A stretch of DNA of 64,000 bases. Source: Christensenellales bacterium (lineage in GTDB: Bacteria > Bacillota > Clostridia > Christensenellales > CAG-917). A program made the position numbers and the translations under genes. Position 1 is the stretch's first letter, and the number at the start of each line of letters is the position of its first letter. Shown here piece after piece: positions 1,944-59,442 of the stretch. Below the pieces are notes generated by a model. It did not search any database. It was not told where the DNA came from and saw nothing but the letters and a program-made list of their open reading frames with translations. The DNA lies in assembly GCA_051883555.1 (NCBI GenBank), contig JBJETY010000052.1:40250-104249 (forward strand), in the 5' to 3' direction.

Positions 1944-4202
1944 ATGAAAAAATTTAAATTATTAGCTTTGATTTTAATAATCGCTATGCTCACGGTCGCT
2001 TTTACGGCTTGTGATGAAATTTTTAAAAAGAACGAGGAAAGAGATTTCAATCAGGTAGTTGCAACGGTCAGTTATTCGACTACCGTAAACGGTAAAAACT
2101 CTACTCAGACGGCAAATATTTTAAAAGGCGATTTGCAATCGTCGTATTCTAATTACGGATATATTTACGTCAACTATTACGGAATGTCCGAAAGCGAGAC
2201 AGCCGAAATGCTTTTAAAGCAGCTTTATCAGAGAAAAGCTCTTGTGATGTTTTCAAAAGCATATTTAATCGATAACGCTTGCGAAGGCATAACGATTACC
2301 GCTCTTCCGGAAAGCGTAGAAATCGAAAAGCTTTTGACGGACGCGGAAATCAACAAGGCGATAAAAGCGACGAACGAAGATATGAAGAAATCGCTTGACA
2401 GCGTAATCGAAGGCTTGATTGCCGATAAAAAGGCAAATACCGGCACGTCTTCCGAAACGGAAGAACAACCGACGGCGGTCAGCGATAAAGTATACAAAGT
2501 ATATTTCAATTCCAACGGCGGCAGCGACGTCGACACGCAAAAAGTCAAAGACGGTACGTGGGCAAGCGAACCTACCGCGCCTACGAAAGACGGATACACT
2601 TTCGGCGGCTGGTTTACGGACGACGCCTATACGACCAAATACAATTTCAAAACGGCGGTCAGTGCAAATTTGACTTTGTATGCAAAGTGGTATGAATATA
2701 CCGAGCCTAGAACGGTCAGAGAAACCACCGAATCGGAAGAAGAGTTCGACCCGCAAGTCGGAGTTGCCATCGAAAGAGAAAAATATTTCTTCGACGCCGA
2801 TTATATTTCAACCTTAACCTTTAAGGATATGGAATCGGGATATACCGAACAAGAATATCTTGATTTCCTCGAAGAGGGCGTAAAACAGCTTAAAGATACT
2901 ATCGCAAAGAATTATCGCACTTACGAATATTTCCTTAACGAACAATACGAGTCGGTTTTGCTTGAAAAATTCAAACGTTGTTTGAATATGAATCAGACCG
3001 TAAGCGATGAAGAAATAAACGCAAAATACGAATCGCTTATCAGTCAGAATAAAGAAAGCTTTACTCAGTCGTCTGATAACTATTCATCGAATCTCAAATC
3101 CGCTCTTTCGGAAACGATTTACAATCTTAACACGACGGCAGGTCAGAGATACGGTTTTGTAACTAACATATTGCTTAAATTCGACGACGATGAACTTAAA
3201 CAACTCACCGACCTTATCGAAAGCGGAACAAGCACTGCCGAACAGGTAAAAGCATTAAGAGATAAACTTGTCGCAGAGCATACGGTAAAGATTTCAAATC
3301 ACGCTTACGACGCGGAATACGAATGCGATAAACATGAATGCGACGGCGATTGCGACCCTATGACTTGCCCTGAACACGAGTGCAACGCAACCGATACGCT
3401 TACGGAAGAAAATTATAACAAACTTATCGAAATCGTTGCCGAAGACGGCAAGCCGGTTATTAAATATAACGCAGAAATCTGTCCGTCGATGGCATATCTT
3501 CTTACCGAATGGCCTGCCTTTACGGTCAGTACGCAAATCGGCGTTGTAGACCAATATAAAGCAAGCCTCGAACAAGTTGACAGCGTTTGCGACAGTTTAG
3601 GATATAGTTTGGCTCAGAAAATTTATTGGAGAAACGAAGTCGTTACGGCTTGGTTGTATCTTATAGGCGACGATAGCGGCGCGGTTTCGAGCGACAGCAA
3701 CAACGGCGGACTCGGATATCTCGTTTGCCCTGAAGACGTCGGCTCTTCCGGATATATCGCAGAATTCGAAGAGAGAGCAAGAGACCTTATTGCAAAAGGT
3801 ACGGGAGCGGCATACGTCGGAAGCGGTACGGACTTGACCGATTATTACGTTGTCGGCGATAATTTTATCGATGAAAACACAACTTCCAGTGCATATTGCG
3901 GAATATTCATTATATATGCAAGTTACGTTCCTTACGACGTTGAAACGTATAAGGCAAACGGCGGAACGAGCCTTAACGGAACAAACGACGATTTCGCAGT
4001 TTCGGGAAATCTTCCGCTCGATTACGTAGTGAGCTATGACGGAACGGAAGACGGCGTTACGATTAAAGCAAATATAGAAAAGGCTCTTTTAGACGCAAAG
4101 AACACTGCAAACTATAACAGCGTCGTAAATACTTTCCTTAACGGAAACGACGTGATAGTGGAAAAATTCGACAAGATAATAAAGCAAGTTTACAGCGACT
4201 AA
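1944..4202 (+). CDS. Large lipoprotein with PrsA/SurA-like foldase architecture, an inserted Listeria-Bacteroides (Flg_new) repeat and a Cys-rich cluster
   Basis: GGAGA RBS lies before the ATG at 1944. Lipobox LTVAFTAC. The N-terminus resembles a SurA-N-like segment (VVATV...). A Flg_new-like block reads YKVYFNSNGG...GYTFGGWFTD...LYAKW. A possible degenerate parvulin-like stretch reads NGGLGYL...GYIAEFEERARDL. The mfd-prsA order is typical in Clostridia. Confidence 0.5.
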   Translation: MKKFKLLALILIIAMLTVAFTACDEIFKKNEERDFNQVVATVSYSTTVNGKNSTQTANILKGDLQSSYSNYGYIYVNYYGMSESETAEMLLKQLYQRKALVMFSKAYLIDNACEGITITALPESVEIEKLLTDAEINKAIKATNEDMKKSLDSVIEGLIADKKANTGTSSETEEQPTAVSDKVYKVYFNSNGGSDVDTQKVKDGTWASEPTAPTKDGYTFGGWFTDDAYTTKYNFKTAVSANLTLYAKWYEYTEPRTVRETTESEEEFDPQVGVAIEREKYFFDADYISTLTFKDMESGYTEQEYLDFLEEGVKQLKDTIAKNYRTYEYFLNEQYESVLLEKFKRCLNMNQTVSDEEINAKYESLISQNKESFTQSSDNYSSNLKSALSETIYNLNTTAGQRYGFVTNILLKFDDDELKQLTDLIESGTSTAEQVKALRDKLVAEHTVKISNHAYDAEYECDKHECDGDCDPMTCPEHECNATDTLTEENYNKLIEIVAEDGKPVIKYNAEICPSMAYLLTEWPAFTVSTQIGVVDQYKASLEQVDSVCDSLGYSLAQKIYWRNEVVTAWLYLIGDDSGAVSSDSNNGGLGYLVCPEDVGSSGYIAEFEERARDLIAKGTGAAYVGSGTDLTDYYVVGDNFIDENTTSSAYCGIFIIYASYVPYDVETYKANGGTSLNGTNDDFAVSGNLPLDYVVSYDGTEDGVTIKANIEKALLDAKNTANYNSVVNTFLNGNDVIVEKFDKIIKQVYSD

Positions 4203-15171: not shown

Positions 15172-15459
15172 AATCAAAACCGCCTTTGGTGGCGTTTGCC
15201 GTTAAACGGAGATAAAACTTATTGCTAACGAAAAGGAAAAGCCGGTGCGAACAATTTGCAGAAACATAGCAGGCAGACCTTTATATTAAAATGCCGTTAT
15301 TATATGGCAAAAATTAACTTACGCCAAATGCAGAATTATTATTGCTTTATTTTCTTATTTATAATATAATATTAATATAAAATAAAACGTGCATAACGTC
15401 TTATTAATGGTGGGGTATTAAGTGACGTTTGCCTTAGGGCTTTGCAAAAGGGGGTAATT

Positions 15460-15735
15460 ATGTTTGACGAATTGTTACTGGGAGATATTTTAGGCATACA
15501 GCCGGAATATCACAAAGTAAAAAAGAATCAAAGTAAAAAGTGGAAAGAAGACGTCGCAATGTGTTTGTGGTTGGATGACCTGGGAAGGGAACAAGGAGAG
15601 CAAGAAAAGCGCGCTTATGAAGCGTGGATGAAAAAACTTACCGGCGGCGAGGTCAGACGCAAAAATACATTCAGCGATATGTCCGAGAATCTCTTTTTCG
15701 ACGATGCGACGTTGACAAAGAAAAGAAAGAAATAA
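15460..15735 (+). CDS. Hypothetical small charged protein
   Basis: ATG preceded by AAGGGGG, and followed by a strong terminator. Confidence 0.35.
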   Translation: MFDELLLGDILGIQPEYHKVKKNQSKKWKEDVAMCLWLDDLGREQGEQEKRAYEAWMKKLTGGEVRRKNTFSDMSENLFFDDATLTKKRKK

Positions 15736-15752
15736 TCAATCTTCAAAAACGG

Positions 15753-15788
15753 CAAAACGACGTTGCAAGGCAACGCCGTTTTGTTTTT
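15753..15788 (+). terminator. Rho-independent terminator
   Basis: A 13-bp stem (caaaacgacgttgc / gcaacgccgttttg, one mismatch) followed by T5. Confidence 0.8.
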
Positions 15789-16367
15789 ACGTTGCGGTTA
15801 TGCGTTGCAGATTTATAGTGCGATTTTGTGTTGCGGTTTCATATTAAGGTTTTATGTTGGATTTCGTGTTATTGCTTTGCGGCCGCGATTAAAAGCAAAC
15901 GTAAGGGTGCGGCTATAGATAAAAGGCGCGACTGAAAATCAAAGAGGCAGGGTAAAATCGTTCACGCACTTTAAATATAAACGTTACCGCCTTGAAACCT
16001 AGACGAAGATACATAAAATAAAAGATAGACAAATTTTTTGAAACCAAAATCGATAATCTTTTTCATCGCTTTTGCAATAAAAGGTTTTGAACGTATAAAA
16101 GTAGTTTTTTAAAACATATTAACGGAAACGAAAAAATCGAACGGAAGGGTAAAACGAAACGGAGAGTACGAAAAATCTATAAAAAACAGTTGCAAAAACT
16201 GCAATCGAAACGGTCGGAGTGCAAATCGTCTGACAAAAAATAACAAAACTTATAATCAATATAACGTTGAAAGAAGTATTTTACCCATTTTTGGCAAAAA
16301 GTAAAGCAAATTTAATGCATAAACGAAAAAAAGTTGCAAAAATATGCAATTTTTTTTAAATTCGGTA

Positions 16368-16396
16368 TTGACAAACTACTTATTAGGAAATAAAAT
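16368..16396 (+). promoter_or_regulatory. Putative sigma-A promoter of the MreB-like pair
   Basis: TTGACA, 17-nt spacer, TAAAAT. This implies a leader of roughly 220 nt. Confidence 0.55.
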
Positions 16397-16476
16397 AATC
16401 TTAGATATAAAAACGGAGACCGATTTCGATAATAATTGTTCCCAAATCTGACGCGGTGGGCTTAATTTTGTTGAAT

Positions 16477-16502
16477 GAATTTCGTTTGACCGAAATTTTT
16501 TT
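16477..16502 (+). promoter_or_regulatory. Terminator-like hairpin inside the leader
   Basis: aatttcg-tttgac-cgaaatt followed by T7. The stem is AT-rich, so stability is modest. Confidence 0.35.
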
Positions 16503-16625
16503 CATCTAATCAAGATTTTGGAATAAAGATTATTAGCTTTTGGGCGGCAACCGAAAGCATAGGTCATAAGTTTTTAAAAAATTAATAATTCATTTTACGG
16601 CAAAAACTTTTGGAGGAAAATTTGT

Positions 16626-17642
16626 ATGGCAAAAGAAGTATTGCAAATCGGAATCGACCTTGGTACTGCTAATACGCTTGTTTATATAGCAAAACAAGGT
16701 ATCGTTTTCAACGAACCATCATACGTTGCTTTCGACAGAGCAACAAAGAAATGCATTGCTTGTGGTCACGCAGCAAAACTCATGGCAGGTAAAACCCACG
16801 ATAAAATCCGTGTTGTTAAACCTCTTGAAGGCGGCGTTGTAGCAGACCTCGATGCAACGAAATCATTACTTGAGTATATCTTCTCAAAACTTGACAGAGC
16901 AGATGATATCGATTGGGCTAAATCAACCATCTTGCTTTGTTGCCCGTCTGAGATTACAGTAGTTGAGCGTGCCGCACTCATCAACTTGGCTCACGATATG
17001 GGTATCCAGGACGTATTTATCGAACAAGAAGTTAAAGCCGGTGCTGTTGGCGCAGGCTGTGACATCTATCAGACTACCGGTTGTATGATAGTTGACATCG
17101 GTGGTGGTTCAACCGATATCGGCGTTCTTTCATGTGGTGACCTTGTAGTTTGGGATTCAATCCGTGTCGCAGGTAGATATTTCGATAACGAAATCGCAAA
17201 GTACGTAAAACAACATTACAATTTGCTTATCGGTGAAAGAACTGCTGAAAGACTTAAGTTTGAACTCGCAACTTTGGCACCAATCGTCGGTGAAGAAAAA
17301 GAATGCGAAGCATCAGGTAGACATCTCAGCCAAGGACAACCTGCAACGATTACCATAAGACAAGGTGAAATTCGTGAAATAATGCTTAAAGCATTCGACA
17401 GGATTAAGCACGTAATCCTTGCAACTTTGGAAAGAACTCCGCCTGAACTTTCAGCTGATATCCTTAAAAACGGTATCACAATCAACGGCGGTGGCGGTTG
17501 TATCACCGGTATCAAAGAATACTTCGAAGCAGAACTCGGACTTCCTTGCACAATCTCGCCTAACTGCTTAACTTCTATCGTTGAAGGAACTAAGTTCTTG
17601 CTTAAGAACAGAGGCAACTATTTGCAGAGACCTGTTGAATAA
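16626..17642 (+). CDS. MreB-family actin-like protein, divergent paralog 1
   Basis: IGIDLGTANTLVY, DIGGGSTDIGVLS, INGGGG. GGAGG RBS. Confidence 0.85.
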   Translation: MAKEVLQIGIDLGTANTLVYIAKQGIVFNEPSYVAFDRATKKCIACGHAAKLMAGKTHDKIRVVKPLEGGVVADLDATKSLLEYIFSKLDRADDIDWAKSTILLCCPSEITVVERAALINLAHDMGIQDVFIEQEVKAGAVGAGCDIYQTTGCMIVDIGGGSTDIGVLSCGDLVVWDSIRVAGRYFDNEIAKYVKQHYNLLIGERTAERLKFELATLAPIVGEEKECEASGRHLSQGQPATITIRQGEIREIMLKAFDRIKHVILATLERTPPELSADILKNGITINGGGGCITGIKEYFEAELGLPCTISPNCLTSIVEGTKFLLKNRGNYLQRPVE

Positions 17643-17687
17643 TCTTGCGGTTATTCTTAAATTCAATAAATTCGTAAAGGAGAAATT

Positions 17688-18731
17688 ATGAAAAAACAAT
17701 TTGATTTAGTCTTCAATCAACCTGAAGACAAGAATAAGAAAGTCGGTATTGGTATTGACCTTGGTACAACAAACCTTTTGGTTTACGTACAAGGCCACGG
17801 CATCATTTTCAATGAGCCGTCAGTTGTAGCATTTGATATGGAAACAGGCGAAGTTATTGCCGGTGGTGCAGATGCTTATTCAATGATTGGTAAGACTCAC
17901 AGCAAGATTAAGGTTTGCAGACCTCTTCGTGAAGGTGTTATCTCTGATATGGAAGCAGCTAAAGCTCTTCTTAAATACGTATTCACAAGAGTTAACAATT
18001 TGAAGAACATTCAAAACGCACTTTGCTTAATTTGCTGCCCGTCAGAAGTTACGCAAATTGAAAGAGAAGCTATGAAGCAACTTGCTATCGAAATGGGTAT
18101 TCAAGACGTATTCATCGAAGAAGAAATTAAAGCAGGTGCTATCGGCTCAGGAAACGACATTTACAATTCAAGAGCAGTTATGGTCGTCGATATCGGCGGT
18201 GGTACAACTGACGTTGGTGTTCTCGCACTCGGCGACGTTGTATTGTCACAGTCAATCAGAATCGCAGGTACGTACATCGATAACGAAATCATCAAGTACG
18301 TCCACAAGAACCATAACCTTGTTATCGGACCTATGACTGCAGAAAAAGTTAAGAAAGAACTTGCAACTTTGTACGCAGATGACGACAGAACGATGAGAGT
18401 TTGCGGACGTGACCTTATGAAAGGTATCCCTGCATCTACAGAAGTTAACTCACAAGAAATCAGAATGGTTATCCTTCCTGTTCTTGCTGAAATCGTCAGC
18501 GTTATCCGTAACGTTCTTGAAATTACTCCTCCTGAATTGTCAGCTGACTTGGTTGACGCAGGTATTATCTGTGACGGCGGTGGTTCACAAATCCCTGGAC
18601 TTAAAGAGTTCTTGGAAGAAGCAGTTTCACTTCCTGTTGAAGTATGTGCTAACCCGCTTACAGCAGTTGTCGAAGGAACGAAAGTTCTTTTGAAGAACAG
18701 AGGCTACTACTTGATTAATCCTGTTGATTAA
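17688..18731 (+). CDS. MreB-family actin-like protein, divergent paralog 2
   Basis: IGIDLGTTNLLVY, DIGGGTTDVGVLA, CDGGGS. AAGGAG RBS. Confidence 0.85.
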   Translation: MKKQFDLVFNQPEDKNKKVGIGIDLGTTNLLVYVQGHGIIFNEPSVVAFDMETGEVIAGGADAYSMIGKTHSKIKVCRPLREGVISDMEAAKALLKYVFTRVNNLKNIQNALCLICCPSEVTQIEREAMKQLAIEMGIQDVFIEEEIKAGAIGSGNDIYNSRAVMVVDIGGGTTDVGVLALGDVVLSQSIRIAGTYIDNEIIKYVHKNHNLVIGPMTAEKVKKELATLYADDDRTMRVCGRDLMKGIPASTEVNSQEIRMVILPVLAEIVSVIRNVLEITPPELSADLVDAGIICDGGGSQIPGLKEFLEEAVSLPVEVCANPLTAVVEGTKVLLKNRGYYLINPVD

Positions 18732-18757
18732 TCGCCATACATGTGGTTCCAAAAAAG

Positions 18758-18795
18758 ACAGCTTGATTGCTTTGCAATCAAGCTGTTTCTTTTTG
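18758..18795 (+). terminator. Strong rho-independent terminator
   Basis: A 13-bp perfect stem (acagcttgattgc / gcaatcaagctgt) followed by a T-rich run. Confidence 0.85.
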
Positions 18796-19042
18796 TCACA
18801 ATAAACGTAAAACAAATCCGACGAAATAAATATGGGGATAAGCTGCTTATTTCCGCTTGTAAATTTAAGGCGTATTCTACAAAGGAAACGCCGTTTTTTA
18901 TGCTTTGACGGATAGAAAAGGTTAAATAAAAAACTCCTTGTTTAAGTCGCTAAAAAAAATAATATCGTTATATAGACTTTTTTTTAAAAGGGTGTTATAC
19001 TAACCTAAGATTTGAAATTAAATTTATTTTAAGGAGAGTATT

Positions 19043-20152
19043 ATGCCTAAAGTTATTTTAGATTGGGATACTGCCGCAAAGTTTATAACAGATGCATTTG
19101 TAGGGGTAGGTGTTCCTAGAGAAGACGCAGAAATTTGTACCGACATTTTGCTTGAATCAGACAAAAGAGGTATCGAATCACACGGTTGTAACCGTTTTAA
19201 ACCGATTTACATCGACCGTATAATTGCCGGTATTCAAAATCCTGTTACGAATTTTGAAATCGTCAAAGAAACCGAAACGACAGCCGTTGTCGACGGTCAC
19301 GACGGAATGGGTCAGGTTATCGGTTATAAATCGATGAGCCTTGCAATCGAGAAAGCAAAGAAATACGGCATGGGTATGGTCGTCGTTCGCAATTCTTGTC
19401 ACTACGGAATTGCCGGATATTATCCGACAATGGCATGTAAAAACGGTTGTATCGGTATTACGGGAACCAATGCCCGTCCGTCCGTTGCTCCGACTTTCGG
19501 CGTTGAGGGAATGTTCGGAACAAACCCTCTTACAATCGGTATTCCTACCGACGAGCCGTTCGATTTCCTTATCGACTGTGCAAGCTCTATAACACAGAAC
19601 GGTAAAATCGAATATTATGCAAGAATCGGCGAACCTGTTCACCCGGGTACGATAATCGACCTTGACGGTAACTCCGTTGAAGGCGACGCGGGCGAAGCAT
19701 TAAAGATGATAAGAAAAGGCACTGCCGCTCTTACGACTCTCGGCGGTATCGGCGAAGCTCTCGGCGGATATAAAGGATACGGCTATGCTATGGTAGTCGA
19801 ATTGTTGTCGGCTTGTCTTCAGGACGGCGCATACGGAAAAGCCCTTAACGGTAAGGACGAAAACGGAAATCTTGTTCCGTATCATCTCGGACATTTCTTT
19901 ATTGCAATCGATACTAATCACTTCCTTGGCGAAGAACTTTGCAGAAAGAAAGCGGGAGATATCATTCGTGCCGTTCGCGCGTCTAAAAAAGCTCCGGGCT
20001 GCGAACATATTTATTCGGCAGGCGAAAAAGAATATAACGTATGGCAACAGAGAAAAGACAGCGGCGTACCAATCAACGAAGCCGTTCAGTTGGAAATGAA
20101 CAAAGTTCGTGACGATTTAGGTTTAAGCTACGTCTTCCCATGGGAAAAATAA
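19043..20152 (+). CDS. Ldh_2 family (malate/L-lactate/sulfolactate dehydrogenase type 2) oxidoreductase
   Basis: N-terminal pattern ...ESDKRGIESHGCNRF..., length and overall profile fit Ldh_2. Confidence 0.8.
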   Translation: MPKVILDWDTAAKFITDAFVGVGVPREDAEICTDILLESDKRGIESHGCNRFKPIYIDRIIAGIQNPVTNFEIVKETETTAVVDGHDGMGQVIGYKSMSLAIEKAKKYGMGMVVVRNSCHYGIAGYYPTMACKNGCIGITGTNARPSVAPTFGVEGMFGTNPLTIGIPTDEPFDFLIDCASSITQNGKIEYYARIGEPVHPGTIIDLDGNSVEGDAGEALKMIRKGTAALTTLGGIGEALGGYKGYGYAMVVELLSACLQDGAYGKALNGKDENGNLVPYHLGHFFIAIDTNHFLGEELCRKKAGDIIRAVRASKKAPGCEHIYSAGEKEYNVWQQRKDSGVPINEAVQLEMNKVRDDLGLSYVFPWEK

Positions 20153-20173
20153 TTTTAGCATAAAGGAGATATT

Positions 20174-21346
20174 ATGAATTACGCAGAAGAGTCATTAAAA
20201 CTTCATTACGAATGGAAGGGCAAAATCGAATGTACTCCAAGAGCCTCGGTTAAAACAAAGGATGAATTGTCTCTTGCTTATACGCCGGGCGTAGCACAAC
20301 CTTGTCTTGAAATTCAAAAAGACGTTTCAAAGTCATACGACCTTACTCGTCGTTGGAATATGGTAGCGGTCGTAACGGACGGTACTGCCGTTCTCGGTCT
20401 CGGGGACATCGGACCTGAAGCAGGTATGCCTGTTATGGAAGGAAAATGCGTTTTGTTCAAAGCATTCGGCGGAGTAGACGCTTTCCCTCTTTGCATCAAG
20501 TCGAAAGACGTTGATGAAATCGTCAGAACGGTTCAACTTATTTCGGGTAGCTTCGGCGGCGTAAACCTCGAAGATATTTCGGCACCTCGTTGTTTTGAAA
20601 TCGAAGAAAAACTTAAAGCATGCACGGACATTCCTATTTTCCACGATGACCAGCACGGAACGGCCGTAGTATGTGCGGCGGCAATTTTAAACGCTATTAA
20701 GGTTGTTAAAAAAGACCTTAAAAATTGTAACGTCGTATTCAGCGGCGCAGGCGCTGCAGGCGTTGCAATTGCAAAACTTCTTTTCGGTTTGGGCGTAAAA
20801 GATATCGTTATGTGCGACAGAAAGGGTATTATTTCTAAGGACAGAGAAGGTATCACTCCTGACAAGATGAAGATAGCGGAATTTACGAACAAATCGAACA
20901 AACAGGGAACGCTTGCTGACGCTATGAAAGGCGCGGATATCTTTATCGGTGTAAGCGCACCAAATATGGTTACGCCTGAAATGGTAAAATCGATGAACTC
21001 TGGTTCGATTATGATGCCTATGGCAAACCCTGTTCCTGAAATTATGCCTGATATCGCAAAAGCCGCAGGCGCTGCCGTCGTAGGTACGGGAAGAAGCGAT
21101 TTCCCTAACCAGATAAACAACGTTTTGGCTTTCCCTGGTATATTCAGAGGCGCTTTGGACGTAAGAGCTTCGGACATCAACGAAGAAATGAAACTCGCGG
21201 CTGCAAAAGCAATAGCTTCGTTGGTTAGCGACGAAGAACTCAATGCGGATTATATCCTTCCGAAAGCATTTGACGACAGAGTCGGTCCGACGGTTGCAAA
21301 AGCAGTTGCCGAAGCAGCAAGAAAAACGGGCGTAGCAAGAATTTAA
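20174..21346 (+). CDS. NAD(P)-dependent malic enzyme (short form)
   Basis: LSLAYTPGVA, VVTDGTAVLGLGDIG, FGGVNLEDI, GAGAAG. Confidence 0.9.
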   Translation: MNYAEESLKLHYEWKGKIECTPRASVKTKDELSLAYTPGVAQPCLEIQKDVSKSYDLTRRWNMVAVVTDGTAVLGLGDIGPEAGMPVMEGKCVLFKAFGGVDAFPLCIKSKDVDEIVRTVQLISGSFGGVNLEDISAPRCFEIEEKLKACTDIPIFHDDQHGTAVVCAAAILNAIKVVKKDLKNCNVVFSGAGAAGVAIAKLLFGLGVKDIVMCDRKGIISKDREGITPDKMKIAEFTNKSNKQGTLADAMKGADIFIGVSAPNMVTPEMVKSMNSGSIMMPMANPVPEIMPDIAKAAGAAVVGTGRSDFPNQINNVLAFPGIFRGALDVRASDINEEMKLAAAKAIASLVSDEELNADYILPKAFDDRVGPTVAKAVAEAARKTGVARI

Positions 21347-21907: not shown

Positions 21908-22375
21908 TCAGATTTCATCTTCGTCTTCGTCGTCTTCCTCTTCTTCCTCGTCCTCTTCGTAATCGTTTATATCGCCGATTGATTCGTCGAAGTCGTATAC
22001 GTCGTCATCGTTTGACTCTTCCTCTTCATCTTCCTCTTCTTCGTCTTCTAACATAGAAAGAGAAATATCGTCAGATTCCTCGTCTTCCGTTTCTTCCTCG
22101 ACAAAATCTCTCCAATCGTCTTCGTCTTCTTTTTCTTCTGATTTTTTTTCTTCTTTTGCTTCTCGGCAAGCCTGGCAGATATCCTCGTCGTCGGCGAGAT
22201 AATTAATTTTGCAAATAGGGCATATTCTTTCTTCGTATAACGATTTTTCGTCATCGTCGTCTTCGATTAAAGACGCATTTGATTTGCCAAGTTCGACTTT
22301 GCATACTTCGCAATAGTCTTCGTTTTCAGGAATATAATTAAGTTCGCAACGTGGGCATTTTTTATATTTTGCCAT
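21908..22375 (-). CDS. Double zinc-ribbon protein with a roughly 90-aa polyacidic tail
   Basis: AAGAGG RBS. CPRC..CEVC and CPIC..CQAC, followed by almost pure D/E sequence. Confidence 0.7.
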   Translation of the reverse strand: MAKYKKCPRCELNYIPENEDYCEVCKVELGKSNASLIEDDDDEKSLYEERICPICKINYLADDEDICQACREAKEEKKSEEKEDEDDWRDFVEEETEDEESDDISLSMLEDEEEEDEEEESNDDDVYDFDESIGDINDYEEDEEEEEDDEDEDEI

Positions 22376-33896: not shown

Positions 33897-33936
33897 TATG
33901 ATACCTAATTTTAGAAACAAAATTTCAGGAGGAAAT

Positions 33937-36831
33937 ATGAAGAAGTTTAATTTGAAGACGTTAATGCTTATCGTATTGGCTTTGGTTATGGTCTTTGCTC
34001 TTGTCGCTTGTGGCGAAAAAAGTGATCCCGGCTCTACAAAGAAACCAAGCTCTACGACAGAAGTAAAGGCGTCAGATTATTTTAACGCATTGACGGAATC
34101 GATTAAATCAATCGGAAGTACGCCAATCAGCAAAACGCAAGATATCTATGCACAAATCGGTGCAGGTGTCAAACTTTCAAACGGAAGTAACGTAAATCTC
34201 GATCTCGCTGTAGAAATCGAACTCGTTTACGACCGCACGAACGATAACGCAAACAGTGCAGCTCACCTTGCTATTGTTGATAAGTCAGGCTCGCTCACTA
34301 AAGTAACGGAAGGCGGACAAGCTATTCTTGAATTGTACTACTTCCTTAACGACCCTACGTACATTTACATGAACGCATTCGATCAACAAATCAAGTTGGA
34401 GTTTGACGCAGACGGAAACAAAAACGCTTCTCTTGCAGGAAACCTTACCGATTTCTTAACAAGCAACTTCGAAACGGGTATGTTTGCAGGTAAGAACCTT
34501 GACGGATTTATCACAACGATAGCAGATACGTTCGGTGATGATTTCACTTTGGACGTTTTGGTTGACACGATTGCTCAACAAATTATGGGAATCAGCACTG
34601 CCGAACTTATCGGTAAGGTTGCAGAAATGATCGGTCAGGAAGCTTCCGATATCAACGGATTGCTCAATGCAGTATCGGGTATTTTGATTGACAGCGATAA
34701 AGACGTTACGAAAACGACCGAAGGAACAAAGACCGTATGGACAGCTAAACTCGGATCTTTGGTAAACGGTCTTATCAGCGGAATGGCAGAAGGCATTCTT
34801 GACGACCAGTCGAGCCTTGCTCTTTCGTTCACGCTCGAAGGAAACGCAATCGACGAATTCTCAATAAGCGGCAAAACCGCTATGTTGGGAACTGGTTCTA
34901 ACGCTTCGAGATACGACCTTGAAATTGCTATCACAGATTTCAAGATTCAAGGCGTTGACGCAGCTGCAAAACCAATCAAAACTGTTGGCGAATATAAGGA
35001 CGACTACGTTATAGAAGCAACTCTTACGGCAGACCTTGCAAAAGATAAGATCAAACTTACTTTTGAAGATCCGTTCACAACCGTTGCTGAAGACGACGAC
35101 AAATGCTTTGCCGATATTTGCACAGAATTTCACAAAGACAAAGAAACTCTCGGAATTATCCTTCCAAACGGTACGGAAATCGAAGGCGAACTTATTGTAA
35201 ACCTTACGGGCAAAGTATCTCTTGCAAATACGCTTGGTTTCTCTAAGGCATATTTCGAAATTCAATATAAATCAAAAGACGGCGCTACAATGGATACCGT
35301 TGTTGAAATGATTTATCAGGAAATCGAAGTTGCAGGCAAGAAACAAGGACAAGTTCAGATTGCAATCACGGATACCGACAACAAATACATCGGATTTATC
35401 AGAGACAACATCTTTGTTGCTATGATAAACGCTTTGTACAATGCAGAAGATAAATCTGAATACGGCTACTACGAAGATCAAATCAATGCAATGTTCGACG
35501 CAATTCAGAACAAGAAGTATGCATTTACCCTTTCTAACATCCAACTTCAAGACCTCTTCCAGAACATATTCTTCGGTGAAAAGGAAGTAGGAAAAGCTGC
35601 AACGACAACAGAGATGAACACCCTTAACATGGTTGATGTCGAAATGAAAGCTGTTTTGAACAACTATGTACAAGTCGGTGCAGACGCATACAAGCTTATT
35701 AAAGAAGCTAGCGAAAGCGGTGTAGAAATCGACACGGCAACTTATGCAATCAATGCTAAATCTCCATATGCAGGACAAAAAGTTGTCTTCTATACTGACG
35801 ACAAAGACAATGATTTAGTATATTCTTATGCAAACCTCTTCAAGACATTTGCAAACGGAAAAGTTGAATCATATTATCCAATAAACTTCAATATCGCAAA
35901 CATTTTGAATATTGCTCTTGACAATATGACGATTGCAAACAACAATCTTACGATTGCTACTGCCGGCGGTATCTTCGAAACCTTGTTCGGATATTCAGAA
36001 CCAAGATCGGTAAAGAATAACGACTCATCGTTATATCGTGGCGGTGATAGGTACGGCTACATCTACATGGGTATCCTTGAAACAGGAGCTCCCACGAATA
36101 CGTACGGTGAGATCACAAGATATGATTCTATCTCAACGGCTGAAGAACTTTACGCAGCAGTTTACAAGGGAAGCGCTTCTGCAATCAAACGTATGACTGA
36201 AGCAGGACTTCTTCAGGCAATCAAAATTGTTGAAGCAACAGACGGCAAGTATGCATATTTAAACGGCGAACTTGTTGTTTGGGAAAGCGGTGAAAAATAT
36301 GACACTAACGTCAGATATAACCTTGAAAAAGGTTTCGAGACTGTCGGAGACGGTTGGTGCTATCAGAACGGTTACACGATGAACAAAGAAGAAGCAGTCG
36401 TAATGTGGAAAGTTTCTGCAGGTGTTGAGATTACGGAAAGCGAATGGAACAGCATCGGCGTAATGACCATTCCAACCGCAGAAACAATTTCAGGCCTTTA
36501 CGATGAAGGTATCGTTAAGACGCTCAAAGATATGTTCGCAGGATCTAACCTTATTGAGAACTTCGATACTTTGAACGGAAACGAAATCTTTGACGATCTC
36601 CTTGCATTTGACGTCAAAGCAAATATCGTAACCGACGCAACTCACATCGCAGTTTCTGCTGAAATCGATGGCGTTGCAAAAGTTTCGTTCAACATCACAA
36701 TCAGCACGGCAACTGCAAACGTAAAAGCTTTGGATAGTGCAATCGCAGCATTTAAAGCTAAATATGAAACAGCTAAGGCAATAAAGGGCGAATTCGTATT
36801 CGATATGTCTATCTGGATGCCTACGGTTTAA
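33937..36831 (+). CDS. 964-aa lipoprotein of unknown function
   Basis: AGGAGG RBS. Lipobox FALVAC. No motif I can assign. Confidence 0.8.
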   Translation: MKKFNLKTLMLIVLALVMVFALVACGEKSDPGSTKKPSSTTEVKASDYFNALTESIKSIGSTPISKTQDIYAQIGAGVKLSNGSNVNLDLAVEIELVYDRTNDNANSAAHLAIVDKSGSLTKVTEGGQAILELYYFLNDPTYIYMNAFDQQIKLEFDADGNKNASLAGNLTDFLTSNFETGMFAGKNLDGFITTIADTFGDDFTLDVLVDTIAQQIMGISTAELIGKVAEMIGQEASDINGLLNAVSGILIDSDKDVTKTTEGTKTVWTAKLGSLVNGLISGMAEGILDDQSSLALSFTLEGNAIDEFSISGKTAMLGTGSNASRYDLEIAITDFKIQGVDAAAKPIKTVGEYKDDYVIEATLTADLAKDKIKLTFEDPFTTVAEDDDKCFADICTEFHKDKETLGIILPNGTEIEGELIVNLTGKVSLANTLGFSKAYFEIQYKSKDGATMDTVVEMIYQEIEVAGKKQGQVQIAITDTDNKYIGFIRDNIFVAMINALYNAEDKSEYGYYEDQINAMFDAIQNKKYAFTLSNIQLQDLFQNIFFGEKEVGKAATTTEMNTLNMVDVEMKAVLNNYVQVGADAYKLIKEASESGVEIDTATYAINAKSPYAGQKVVFYTDDKDNDLVYSYANLFKTFANGKVESYYPINFNIANILNIALDNMTIANNNLTIATAGGIFETLFGYSEPRSVKNNDSSLYRGGDRYGYIYMGILETGAPTNTYGEITRYDSISTAEELYAAVYKGSASAIKRMTEAGLLQAIKIVEATDGKYAYLNGELVVWESGEKYDTNVRYNLEKGFETVGDGWCYQNGYTMNKEEAVVMWKVSAGVEITESEWNSIGVMTIPTAETISGLYDEGIVKTLKDMFAGSNLIENFDTLNGNEIFDDLLAFDVKANIVTDATHIAVSAEIDGVAKVSFNITISTATANVKALDSAIAAFKAKYETAKAIKGEFVFDMSIWMPTV

Positions 36832-52384: not shown

Positions 52385-53227
52385 ATGTCGGAACACGAAG
52401 GACATAGGGAAAGATTTAAACAGAGAGTTTTAAAAGAAGGACTTGAAAATTTTCAGAATCACGAGATTTTAGAGTTCTTGCTTTATCCTTTTATTCCCAG
52501 AAAAGATACCAATCCCATTGCTCACAAATTGATTGACAGATTCGGAAGTTTTCACAACGTGCTTAACGCCGAAGTCGAGGATCTTGAAAAGGTAGACGGC
52601 GTTACGCATTCTGCCGCATTGTATCTGAATGCGTTGCCGCAGGTATTTCGCAAATACCAACAGGACTTTGAAAGCAAAAAGCCGTCGTTTGCAACGCACG
52701 GCGACGCAATAAATTTTTTGAAAAACTATTTCGATTGCAGGACGAAAGAAGCCGTTTACGCTTTGTCTTTGGATAAACGGTTTAAACTTATCGGAGTGTT
52801 TGCTTTGGGCGAAGGGTATGGCGATTCCGTTTCGCTCACCGCACGAGAAGTAGCCGACGTTGCAATGCGTACCAACGCTTCTGCGATTATAATTGCTCAC
52901 AATCACCCTAGCGGTTCGGCGTTTCAGTCGCAAGCGGATTACAGAATGACGAATATAATTGCTTGCAATCTGTCGTTTATGGGAATTACTCTTTGCGACC
53001 ATATCATATTTGCAGGGCAGAATTATTACAGCTTTGCACAGCACGATTTATTCCGTTATATCGACGGCACAATCGATAAGTTTATAAAGGACGGAGCAAA
53101 GTTTTATGAAATTCCCGACTTGCTTAACGAAGAAGCGGTTGACGTCAATATATTCAGTTCGAGCGTTATATCCGACGAAAACTTTTTGTCTGATAAATTG
53201 ACGGCTGTCGATTTCGGGAAAAAGTGA
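52385..53227 (+). CDS. radC: RadC-family JAB/MPN domain protein
   Basis: HRERFKQR, ELLEFLL-type N-terminus, HhH, HNHPSG JAMM motif. Carries an extra C-terminal region of about 60 aa. Confidence 0.8.
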   Translation: MSEHEGHRERFKQRVLKEGLENFQNHEILEFLLYPFIPRKDTNPIAHKLIDRFGSFHNVLNAEVEDLEKVDGVTHSAALYLNALPQVFRKYQQDFESKKPSFATHGDAINFLKNYFDCRTKEAVYALSLDKRFKLIGVFALGEGYGDSVSLTAREVADVAMRTNASAIIIAHNHPSGSAFQSQADYRMTNIIACNLSFMGITLCDHIIFAGQNYYSFAQHDLFRYIDGTIDKFIKDGAKFYEIPDLLNEEAVDVNIFSSSVISDENFLSDKLTAVDFGKK

Positions 53228-57954: not shown

Positions 57955-59442
57955 ATGGGATATAATTACGAGAACGTGTGTGCAAATTTTCTTAAAGAAG
58001 TGGCACAGGTCGATAGAGTGGTAGAATTAAAATTGCCGTTGCAGGACGGGAGCAACGTTGCGAAAGTTTTGTCGGTTGTTGCCGACGGCAGAGCTGTTTC
58101 CGCTGTCGCAAATGAAGGGGAAGTGGATTTCAACGGCAGAGTAGCATTTAAACTGACGTATATTTCAGACGACGAACAATTGGGAAGCCTTGATTATTTT
58201 GCGGATTTCGGAGAAAAAATTCTTGCTGACGTAAAACAGGGAAATATAGTAAACGGCATTGCCGAAGTCGTTGAAACGGATATAGTAAGCAACGGAGAAC
58301 TGAAGCTTGCCGCCGTCGTTAAGATTACGATTTATGCGTCGGTTAAAAGCGAAACGGAATGTCTTGTTGAAGCACCTGAAGAGTGTTATGCGGAAAAGGC
58401 AGACGTCGACGTAAAAACTTTTGCCGACTGCGCAAATAAAGAATTGGTGGTAACAGGCGACGACGCTATCGGAGGAGACGTAAAGAAAATCTTGTCAACC
58501 GATTGCGTTGCCGCCGTCAGCGAGCTGAAAACCGGCGACGGAGTTGCGTTTGTCAGCGGCATAGTTTCCGCAAGGGTAACTTATGCAATGGGCGACACGA
58601 TAAAATGTTCCGTTTTTGAAATGCCTTTTTCCGAGGAGGTTGAAATAAACGTAGACGATTTAGGTTCGTTATCCTGCGACGCCGAAGTTAAAAACGTACG
58701 CATAATAATAAGCGGAACGGAGGGCGACAACGTAATAGAAATAGAAGCTTTGGTTGCCATTAAAGTGTGTTCATATCTGACGAAAAAGACAAGCGTGGTA
58801 AAGGACGTGTTTATGCTCGACCGAGAGATTGCCGTTGAAAGAAACAAATTCGAATACTCACAGTTTGATAAAACTTTTATTTTTGACGATAAACTTACGG
58901 ACAGCGCGAAGCTCAGCGAATCCCGTTCGGCGGTAAGAGAGATTTTATCGCCTGTTAACGCAAGCAATAACGTGGCAAGAGTATGGGCGGAAAGCGGAAA
59001 GATTTTTATTGAAGGGCTTATATCCTCCACCGTTATCTACAGCGACGAAAACGGTTTCAATTCGGTTAAGGTGGAAGTGCCTTATTCGACTTCCTTTAAT
59101 GCGGACGTTGTGGGGAACGAGACCTTAAAAGCAAGCGGCGTCGTCACGGAAATTGTTCCGAAAATCAAAAGGGACAGAGAAATCGAATTGACCGCAAAGC
59201 TCAATTTTAAGGTAGAATCGTCGACTGTACGGTCGTTGAATGTAATAACCAACGTAACGGAGGGAGAAATTAAACCTATAAACGAATCGACCGTATCGGT
59301 ATATATCGTATCGGAGGGAGATACTATCTGGGACGTTGCGAAAGCGTTCAGCGCGTCTCCCGACAGAATAACGGCACAAAATAATATCACCGAAAAACTT
59401 GAGGAAGGACAGCGGATAGTATATTTCAGGGCATTGGACTAA
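57955..59442 (+). CDS. DUF3794 (SPOCS) repeat protein with a C-terminal LysM domain
   Basis: GGAGG RBS. C-terminal YIVSEGDTIWDVAKAF...NNI LysM. Position next to veg and ispE matches other Clostridia. Confidence 0.7.
   Translation: MGYNYENVCANFLKEVAQVDRVVELKLPLQDGSNVAKVLSVVADGRAVSAVANEGEVDFNGRVAFKLTYISDDEQLGSLDYFADFGEKILADVKQGNIVNGIAEVVETDIVSNGELKLAAVVKITIYASVKSETECLVEAPEECYAEKADVDVKTFADCANKELVVTGDDAIGGDVKKILSTDCVAAVSELKTGDGVAFVSGIVSARVTYAMGDTIKCSVFEMPFSEEVEINVDDLGSLSCDAEVKNVRIIISGTEGDNVIEIEALVAIKVCSYLTKKTSVVKDVFMLDREIAVERNKFEYSQFDKTFIFDDKLTDSAKLSESRSAVREILSPVNASNNVARVWAESGKIFIEGLISSTVIYSDENGFNSVKVEVPYSTSFNADVVGNETLKASGVVTEIVPKIKRDREIELTAKLNFKVESSTVRSLNVITNVTEGEIKPINESTVSVYIVSEGDTIWDVAKAFSASPDRITAQNNITEKLEEGQRIVYFRALD

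Follow-up and report, generated by a model that had tools for sequence, protein, structure and literature searches.

A tandem pair of Haloplasma-type MreB actins in a Clostridia genome with division-type peptidoglycan genes

Introduction

What can a pair of MreB actins do in a bacterium in which their genes stand apart from any mreC or mreD, and where would such a pair come from? The question is raised by a 64,000-nucleotide stretch of Christensenellales bacterium DNA (contig JBJETY010000052.1 of assembly GCA_051883555.1; hereafter the window), in which two co-oriented open reading frames (ORFs) of the MreB family, ORF A and ORF B, follow each other between positions 16626 and 18731. An initial annotation, made from the letters alone, had described private motifs in them and had thought plausible a co-expressed, possibly heteropolymeric actin pair separate from the elongasome.

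A clade called HMreB, made up of MreBs from Haloplasma and Izimaplasma, has been placed between those of Spiroplasma and the MreBH of Bacillus (Takahashi et al. 2020, bioRxiv 10.1101/2020.05.13.095042). According to a recent preprint, the seven MreBs of Haloplasma contractile split into clades HA, HB and HC, HA and HB genes adjoin (B1-A1, B2-A2), and the proteins assemble into ribbons that associate with the membrane (Mimura et al. 2026, bioRxiv 10.64898/2026.06.16.731841). In the minimal cell syn3B only HA+HB combinations gave movement, such a pair being reported as necessary and sufficient for elongation and movement, and T161K in B1 or T160K in A1 abolished movement while helix formation was kept (same preprint).

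Here we report that A and B are MreBs of this Haloplasma-type clade, placed side by side in a Clostridia genome that encodes peptidoglycan synthesis, and we lean towards reading them as a horizontally acquired, highly expressed HB+HA actin unit that would work independently of the elongasome. Below, A and B stand for the two ORFs and their products, C for a paralog on contig C46 and D for a maf-linked MreB; G000 is the genome of the window.

Results

A and B belong to the Haloplasma-type MreB clade

Both ORFs match PF06723 (MreB_Mbl; A 369 and B 386 bits, cut-off 27) and pass the cut-off of 293 of NCBIfam NF010539 (332 and 348 bits), in agreement with their annotation as two co-oriented MreB-family genes. 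Their scores with TIGR00904 mreB (298 and 319 bits) and with the MreBH model NF010540 (310 and 319 bits) stay below the respective cut-offs of 365.75 and 515. The two proteins are identical at 173 of 331 aligned residues (52%), close to the half estimated by eye. The closest named relatives of B are proteins of Haloplasma contractile, Haloplasmataceae and 'Mycoplasmatota bacterium' (63-73% identity); those of A come from its own lineage, labelled 'Eubacteriales bacterium' (97%), and A is 62% identical to Haloplasmataceae, 56-57% to H. contractile and ~51% to Sphaerochaeta proteins. Among solved structures, 7BVY/7BVZ score best (302 and 295 bits), joined in the case of B by 7E1C/7E1G (281 bits); they are Spiroplasma citri MreB5 and S. 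eriocheiris MreB3, respectively (PMC9195046, PMC9597168). Solved MreBs of walled bacteria score 219-249 bits with A or B, and the identity of the pair to solved MreBs is about 45-50%. Actins of the ParM, AlfA or MamK type were considered and rejected, with 69 and 80 bits against a cut-off of 400 for MamK and 15 against 417 for ParM; BeeR reached 47 and 58 bits against 530, and no AlfA model was among the profile matches.

A tree of 113 MreBs, obtained by a quick IQ-TREE search under LG+C20, puts A, B and C inside a clade of 50 rows with a support of 100 by an approximate likelihood-ratio test of SH-like type (SH-aLRT) and a stem of 0.86. This clade holds every Haloplasma, Haloplasmataceae, Izemoplasma and Sphaerochaeta protein of the tree, and it nests in a clade of 60 rows (99) together with MreBs of Erysipelotrichales-type Bacilli. 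A second tree, built by a careful search from 57 rows with the long-branch D group left out, recovers the whole Haloplasma-type clade (30 rows) with supports of 100/100 (ultrafast bootstrap, UFBoot/SH-aLRT). It joins A and C, sisters at 100/99, to one Haloplasmatales subclade (98/93) and places B inside the other (94/95), while the canonical MreBs of the same order group with those of Clostridium, Acutalibacteraceae and Ruminococcus. The approximately unbiased (AU) test rejects a topology in which the 11 rows of the window's lineage and the 9 rows of canonical MreBs from the same order make up a single clade (delta log-likelihood 420, p-AU 1.05e-5). From this test and from the placement in both trees, the pair does not nest in ordinary clostridial MreB/Mbl clades, the position that the initial annotation had named as the one contrary to its proposal.

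Four motifs, GK-H, CCPSE, FIE(E/Q)E(I/V)KAGA and the C-terminal LLKNRG-Y-L--P, are all carried by A and B and are kept throughout the alignment of the pair with its Haloplasma-type relatives. Each of them occurs in 45-46 of the 50 clade members and in 0-1 of the 63 other MreBs among the 113 sequences, being absent from all ten sister-type and all ten D-type proteins and present in 0-1 of the other 43. The motifs were derived in this analysis and not from the literature, and the counts have descriptive value, since it was the tree that supplied the groups. The motifs believed to be private to the pair are therefore hallmarks of a whole clade.

An inferred HB-then-HA gene order, as in Haloplasma

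To which of the Haloplasma types do the two proteins correspond? The threonines mutated in the preprint are T160 in A1 and T161 in B1 (Mimura et al. 2026). Only P0032 and P0054, both of the subclade of B, have their first Thr after GGG at residue 160; in P0147, of the subclade of A, it is residue 161. Furthermore, ERJ11131/ERJ11132 and ERJ10881/ERJ10882 are pairs of adjacent accessions, each with one protein of the type of ORF B and one of the type of ORF A, and ERJ10877, also of the type of ORF B, lies four genes beyond, an arrangement that fits B1-A1 and B2-A2(-C2)-A3; the Haloplasma gene order is taken here from accession numbers together with the preprint. From the threonine positions and the adjacent accessions we infer that ORF A is of HB type and ORF B of HA type, the subclade joined by A and C being HB and the one containing B being HA. 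The HB-type gene would thus lie directly before the HA-type gene, in the order known from Haloplasma.

The host encodes peptidoglycan synthesis and two further MreBs

The host is a gut Clostridia bacterium, and its genome is a 1.49-Mb draft of 86 contigs. No MreC and no MreD were found in it at 95.9% completeness, so that their absence beside the pair, already annotated, extends to the whole assembly; nor were a class-A penicillin-binding protein (PBP) glycosyltransferase (Transgly) domain or a flagellin found in the genome. It has a single SEDS protein and a single class-B PBP (bPBP), and both are in the division and cell wall (dcw) cluster, which reads bPBP(PASTA)-MurE-MraY-MurD-FtsW-MurA-FtsQ-FtsA-like-FtsZ; an amidase is encoded as well. 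The host can thus make peptidoglycan, and no elongasome-specific part, neither MreC/MreD nor a dedicated RodA/PBP2, was found among the genes searched, RodZ not being one of them. The separation of the pair from the elongasome, first proposed from its surroundings, holds here in a stronger form, since the search of the genome brought up no MreC, MreD, class-A PBP or second SEDS/bPBP.

SipL, a marker of spore-coat morphogenesis in Clostridia, is also encoded in the window, at 57955-59442 (+); the protein has a SPOCS domain and a LysM domain, and the genome that holds its gene measures only 1.49 Mb. Given the full division-type peptidoglycan pathway, the amidase and SipL, the host is probably walled.

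That the pair is the only MreB locus of the genome, a case which the initial annotation had counted against its proposal, does not apply here. Paralog C (C46:41870-42907(+), L003:1453-2490; 346 aa) has the motifs of A and B and an Asn-rich N-terminus; its phosphate-2 motif reads DIGAGSTN, a form that is conserved in its ortholog, and has lost the acidic residue of T-X-[D/E]. C was seen in G000, G003, G004 and G005 and was not found in G001 or G002. It is an old duplicate of the HB type and may act as a slow-hydrolysing modulator subunit.

The fourth, very divergent MreB, D, is split by contig ends in G000 (C85:1-429(-) and C33:1259-1834(-)), and is intact in the congener G003 (L101:1998-2990(-)), where the order is ppx-maf-D with no mreC or mreD after it. 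D scores 216 bits with PF06723 and 221 bits with NF010539, below the cut-off of the latter. Ser and Lys take the places of its catalytic Glu and Thr, and its adenosine motif is shortened by a 5-residue deletion; 22 of 32 D-type sequences have Lys at the Thr position. The same Thr-to-Lys change is natural in Spiroplasma MreB3 and is also an engineered, ATPase-dead change. The relatives of D form a narrow group of ~22 database clusters at at least 43% identity, one of them labelled 'Clostridiaceae bacterium', and identity with ordinary MreBs falls to 31-35%. In Firmicutes, mreB usually sits by maf (maf-radC-mreB-mreC-mreD). Because D occupies this place, we regard it as the vertically inherited mreB, and its sequence suggests that what is left of this native MreB is probably ATPase-dead, yet still maintained by selection.

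The pair is restricted to two genera of its family

When 108 genomes of the family were searched with ORF B, the clade of the pair was found in seven, namely G000, the other five of its six-genome genus and the only genome of genus g14, that is in 2 of 16 genera, and in none of the 101 genomes of the other 14. Among 41 relatives, none but the window's genus (G000-G005) and G018 of the second genus has copies scoring at least 349 bits, and every family genome has one D-type gene (168-240 bits). In the order, 2 of the 32 genera sampled have the pair. MreC was found in none of the 25 family genomes sampled, whereas 10 of the 16 genomes from other families of the order have it.

The order of the two genes and their Ldh_2 and malic-enzyme neighbours are the same in G001-G004 and G018, on contigs of up to 371 kb. 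Ldh_2 itself is present in 9 of the 41 genomes (genera g1, g7 and g14), with different contexts in g7, and this patchiness in varied contexts leaves no with/without comparison of the same site. Taken together with the trees, the distribution strongly indicates a horizontal origin of the pair.

Genes of the same clade are found in two other non-Mollicute hosts. Sphaerochaeta sp. (G057, L010:4953-8130) and a 1.4-Mb Clostridia metagenome-assembled genome (MAG), SMAG_U7088 (G058, L011:4931-8102), each carry three tandem co-oriented MreBs of the Haloplasma-type clade. No MreC match was found in either genome, each has one SEDS match, and the Clostridia MAG also has one divergent 271-bit MreB, mirroring the genome of the window. 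For Sphaerochaeta, rodA and mreC have been described as absent, with mreB kept by most species (PMC7738495). In the genomes with sister-type MreBs (Breznakia, a Mycoplasmatota MAG and Clostridium sp. CAG:417) we found MreC, three SEDS proteins each and four or five transpeptidase matches. The clade thus accompanies absence of the Rod complex in every non-Mollicute host examined, which are three lineages and too few for a test. The genes of the triple arrays fall in other subclades than the pair, one on a deep branch, one with Izimaplasma proteins and one as sister to the HB type, and for this reason the arrays probably reflect a separate transfer, of an Izimaplasma-like triplet.

Codon usage, constraint and RNA-library contigs

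The initial annotation had noted that codons ending in CG (NCG) look rare in the pair, as would fit high expression. Their share of all NCN codons is 0.082 in A and 0.104 in B, the lowest of the window, where the median of 40 ORFs is 0.37 and the next lowest value 0.167. Among the 971 ORFs of the genome, A has the 6th, C the 9th and B the 12th lowest share. Twenty other ORFs from the 45 with the lowest share include, by Pfam, the ribosomal proteins L17, L24, S3, S8 and S2, along with EF-Ts, EF-Tu, GAPDH, aldolase, triosephosphate isomerase, rubrerythrin and glutamate dehydrogenase; for EF-Tu the share is 0.168, a weaker bias than in A, B and C. This tail being rich in ribosomal, elongation-factor and glycolytic genes, the bias corresponds to the genome's own signature of high expression, as had been supposed.

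All four MreBs are under purifying selection, the ratio of non-synonymous to synonymous substitution rates (dN/dS) being 0.03-0.08 in A and 0.02-0.06 in B, compared with 0.07-0.10 in C and 0.13 in D. When G000 is set against G003, dS amounts to 0.38 for A and 0.36 for B, compared with 0.88 for Ldh_2, 0.86 for the malic enzyme and 2.4 for ProRS, and these low values relative to the neighbours fit selection on synonymous sites.

Public sequencing runs that hold part of the stretch number 18, from seven studies, and 12 of them are recorded as RNA. Contigs were examined for four of the RNA runs, each from a different study; three of these runs bear the label pig gut metagenome and the fourth the label whole organism metagenome. 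In all four, contigs bridge the A-B junction (Table 1), in line with the predicted co-expression of the two genes. Contigs start in the leader at 16420 (X6), 16454 (X9) and 16458 (X2), the one of X6 lying 24 nt past the predicted -10 hexamer. Those of X2 and X6, from two studies, end at 18755, one base before the terminator stem, which is a weak hint only, and the four runs show no RNA-contig cover of 15400-16404 or 18817-19218, which by itself proves nothing. These contigs support, without proving, a bicistronic transcript of ~2.3 kb from both genes.

Catalytic motifs, membrane determinants and a model of the A-B complex

In Spiroplasma MreBs, the E...T-X-[D/E] motif governs phosphate release (PMC9597168). 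B has it intact (E...T-T-D) and A with a conservative Thr-to-Ser change (E...S-T-D), as have several Haloplasma HB proteins; C reads E...S-T-N, with DIGAG in phosphate-2, and in D the positions of Glu and Thr are occupied by Ser and Lys.

The membrane loop of walled-cell MreBs has two consecutive hydrophobic residues, FF or LF (Bacillus, Thermotogaceae and same-order rows), and is reduced to a single W, F or I in the Haloplasma-type clade, whose members share a basic C-terminal tail instead. B has in addition an N-terminal extension of ~12 residues (MKKQFDLVF...), kept in the genus and in G018 and absent from Haloplasma HA proteins. Spiroplasma MreBs act without a wall or RodZ, and membrane binding of MreB5 depends partly on charge and on the C-terminal tail (PMC9195046). 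Because S. citri MreB5 binds the membrane by charge, one may speculate that the tail, or the extension of B, does so here.

A model of the A-B complex scored 0.71, against 0.01 for the best control, a mark reached by 116 of 157 solved complexes and by 2 of 215 mismatched pairs; the runs agree on 100% of contacts, and the partners have a predicted local distance difference test (pLDDT) value of at least 83. The modelled contact is the classical longitudinal one, in which residues 150-174 and 265-283 of A meet 50-74 and 212-250 of B, with GKTH at B 68-71. As MreB protofilaments are already solved, this result shows likeness to them and cannot separate hetero- from homopolymers; co-assembly of A and B into a heteropolymer would be consistent with the model and with the Haloplasma pairs.

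The locus and its neighbours

The features of the locus are listed in Table 1. The unit running from its own promoter to a terminator, as first described, is recognisable in a promoter-like site and a 15-pair terminator hairpin. A scan for promoter-like sites gave 7 against 8.1 in shuffled sequences, that is no excess, so that the site upstream of ORF A rests on its conservation. In an alignment of six genomes, the -35 box with its flank, GGTATTGACA, is invariant in all six, the -10 box is kept in the five genomes of the genus, and ~30 nt around the ribosome-binding site of ORF A are nearly invariant. Shine-Dalgarno sequences precede both ORFs.

Table 1. Coordinates of the A-B locus in the window and of RNA-library contigs that bridge the A-B gap.
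Feature	Position	Strand	Size	Description
Sigma-70-type promoter-like site	16368..16396	+		TTGACA, 17 nt, TAAAAT; 11 of 12 positions match
5' leader	16420..16625	+	~200 nt	Variable except last ~30 nt around Shine-Dalgarno GGAGG (16612-16616)
ORF A	16626..17642	+	338 aa	Putative HB-type MreB of the Haloplasma-type clade; motif E...S-T-D
A-B intergenic gap	17643..17687	+	45 nt	Contains Shine-Dalgarno AAGGAGA of ORF B (17677-17683); without terminator
ORF B	17688..18731	+	347 aa	Putative HA-type MreB of the Haloplasma-type clade; motif E...T-T-D intact
Intrinsic-terminator-like hairpin	18756..18797	+		15-pair stem and 3-nt loop (18756-18788), then T run
RNA-library contig, X1	16836-17782			Bridges A-B gap
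RNA-library contig, X2	17253-17782			Bridges A-B gap
RNA-library contig, X6	16420-18755			Bridges A-B gap
RNA-library contig, X9	16454-18704			Bridges A-B gap

The neighbours are unrelated to the pair, as annotated: small ORFs without Pfam match upstream, Ldh_2 and malic enzyme downstream, and radC at 52385-53227, ~34 kb away and followed by gltX. The pair sits on a contig of 112,932 bases among the housekeeping genes AlaRS, ProRS, LysRS, GltX, GreA and Rex, plus SipL. About 890 nt upstream of ORF A (15736-16625) are without a convincing ORF, and no Rfam match at E<=1 was found within 15700-16700. The adjoining Ldh_2 and malic-enzyme genes (19043-21346) are themselves patchy in the family, and the whole neighbourhood may be accessory.

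Three other genes of the window deserve mention. At 21908-22375 (-) lies a gene for a 155-aa protein with two CxxC...CxxC motifs followed by a long Asp/Glu-rich tail; it has no Pfam match and is kept in G002, G003 and G004 at 67-79% identity. The ORF of 977 aa at 33898-36831 (+) has no Pfam match at E<=1e-5 and a rather low NCG share of 0.187, which suggests a well-expressed protein of unknown family. Finally, 1944-4202 (+) encodes a 752-aa protein with a Listeria-Bacteroides repeat (Flg_new) domain, probably a surface protein.

Discussion

Among known systems, the pair is closest to the B1-A1 and B2-A2 genes of H. contractile, with which it shares the clade, the hallmark motifs and the adjacent HB-then-HA order, at identities of 56-57% for A and 63-71% for B; likewise, the catalytic Glu is kept in both proteins, and the phosphate-2 residue is Thr in B and Ser in A, the latter as in several Haloplasma HB proteins. 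Unlike the wall-less Mollicute, the host is a Clostridia genome with peptidoglycan and division genes (bPBP, MurE, MraY, MurD, FtsW and MurA are all present), and its vertical MreB relatives and the canonical same-order MreBs group with Clostridia or bear Clostridia labels. It has three genes of the clade where Haloplasma has five to seven, and none of HC type; B has its N-terminal extension, the third copy is HB-derived with S-T-N for T-X-[D/E], and the pair is known here from its genes, its function being proposed by analogy.

The likeness to Spiroplasma MreB5 and MreB3 lies in the best-scoring structures, in GKTH and CPS motifs that both sides share in the 7bvy alignment, and presumably in the cooperation of several MreB isoforms. 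Spiroplasma MreBs are nonetheless a clade separate from HMreB (bioRxiv 10.1101/2020.05.13.095042; bioRxiv 10.64898/2026.06.16.731841), and the tail of the pair is LLKNRG-Y-L--P and not the long Lys/Arg tail of MreB5. With MreB, Mbl and MreBH of the elongasome, the pair has in common the Pfam family, the fold, the nucleotide-binding motifs and the predicted longitudinal protofilament contact; it differs from them in its clade, in scores below the TIGR00904 and MreBH cut-offs, in GKTH for GRTPG and IE-E-KAGA for EEP--AA, in the reduced double-hydrophobic loop and in that no mreC or mreD was found. The arrays of Sphaerochaeta and the Clostridia MAG are similar as tandem co-oriented genes in non-Mollicute hosts with a single SEDS protein and no MreC found, and different in having three genes each, from other subclades.

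These comparisons suggest the following scenario. The family, one of reduced genomes, would already have lost MreC/MreD and the elongation-specific wall synthases, with decay of its native MreB, when the common ancestor of the two genera received the pair, or its recent precursor, from a Haloplasmatales-like donor among the Bacilli/Mollicutes. A later duplication of the HB-type gene would have given the third copy on C46 with its altered ATPase motif, and the pair, transcribed as one highly expressed bicistronic unit, would by now be adapted to the codon usage of its host. By analogy with the Haloplasma and Spiroplasma experiments, A and B may polymerise into membrane-associated filaments that act together, and ATP hydrolysis by them may impose elongation, curvature or helicity without a Rod complex, and not by guiding peptidoglycan insertion.

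The role could also be more conventional. The acquired MreBs might serve as a replacement scaffold that guides lateral peptidoglycan insertion by the single FtsW/bPBP, in what would be an ordinary rod with foreign MreBs. We judge this account unlikely, yet it is the alternative to be taken most seriously. In its favour, a complete dcw and Mur set is kept and the native MreB is degenerate, and it agrees with the preserved nucleotide-binding and catalytic motifs of A and B, with a predicted longitudinal interface of the classical MreB kind, and with the nesting of the clade in Bacilli MreBs whose hosts have MreC. What it lacks is the coupling, because no MreC, MreD, second SEDS/bPBP or class-A PBP was found in a search that did not extend to RodZ; furthermore, 101 family genomes in 14 genera do without these MreBs, the double-hydrophobic membrane loop is cut to one residue, and all characterised members of the clade, as reported in the preprint, act without peptidoglycan (Mimura et al. 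2026).

Two further explanations concern the origin of the pair. That it is a vertical relic, i.e. a set of ancient Firmicute paralogs passed on by descent and missing today from nearly all other Clostridia through loss, would fit the age of the clade, in which HA and HB types split before the Haloplasmatales radiated, as well as the position of the Clostridia HB-type clade as sister to that of the Haloplasmatales and a codon usage that is fully host-like. We consider it improbable in view of the presence of the pair in only 2 of 16 genera of the family and 2 of 32 sampled in the order, of the grouping of same-order canonical MreBs with other Clostridia, which the AU test does not allow to be joined with the pair (p 1.05e-5), of the lineage's own maf-linked MreB descendant D, and of the 63-73% identity of B to Haloplasma proteins across a class boundary. 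Even less weight, indeed hardly any, goes to an artefact of mis-binned foreign contigs or to plasmid or phage segregation actins of the ParM/AlfA kind: the genome is a draft of 86 contigs and one database relative is labelled plasmid-borne in 'Mycoplasmatota bacterium' (P0184), but the pair lies among housekeeping genes on its 112,932-base contig, has synteny kept in G001-G004 and G018 and a host-like codon usage, and falls far short of the ParM and MamK cut-offs (15 bits versus 417 and 69-80 versus 400).

The reading of the pair as an acquired, elongasome-independent actin unit has to face several points that weigh against it. A gene tree alone gives no direction of transfer, which here rests on parsimony, as does the preference for one gain over many losses. 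The Clostridia HB-type clade is sister to that of the Haloplasmatales and not nested in it, and the HA-type nesting has moderate support (89/92 and 82/58). The trees were built without Spiroplasma sequences, and the group of the AU test was named after the tree had been seen. A comparison of the loci of G011 and G048 showed no clean 'empty site', synteny being not conserved at the family level. Part of the NCG scarcity could be the legacy of a low-GC donor; DNA may be present in RNA libraries, and their contigs, which give neither transcript levels nor true ends, were read without a DNA run or a silent stretch as control. In ORF A, the catalytic Thr is replaced by Ser, as in several Haloplasma HB proteins. 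Finally, all experiments on the clade come from wall-less cells; in a host that is probably walled, an internal ribbon may be unable to deform the cell.

The HMreB clade and the HA+HB principle were already known, and what appears to be new is the presence of the clade in walled, non-Mollicute hosts. We found no description of such hosts or of the triple arrays in print, in a search that left subscription journals largely aside; the words 'Sphaerochaeta', 'Clostridia', 'horizontal' and 'walled' do not occur in the preprint of Mimura et al. (2026), the description of the clade by Takahashi et al. (2020) likewise makes no mention of walled or Clostridia hosts, of Sphaerochaeta or of horizontal transfer, and the passages on Sphaerochaeta and MreB that were consulted do not address the type of MreB. 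Work on MreB in shape and motility treats such MreBs as a peculiarity of the wall-less Mollicutes. The label 'rod shape-determining protein MreB' covers functionally different clades, and four simple motifs tell them apart.

As a tentative extension, the HB+HA 'actuator' might be a transferable module that works in peptidoglycan-making bacteria and has spread across classes and phyla into lineages without a Rod complex, namely the Clostridia genus of the window, the small Clostridia MAG and Sphaerochaeta, where it would supply wall-independent shaping or even flagellum-independent bending or motility. If this were true, wall-independent MreB mechanics would not be a consequence of wall loss, and would be a stand-alone replacement for the elongasome. 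The host of the pair provides a natural setting for testing whether such actins, inside a walled cell, work independently of its wall machinery; it also bears on how cell shape is maintained after loss of the elongasome and on the transfer of such modules between phyla.

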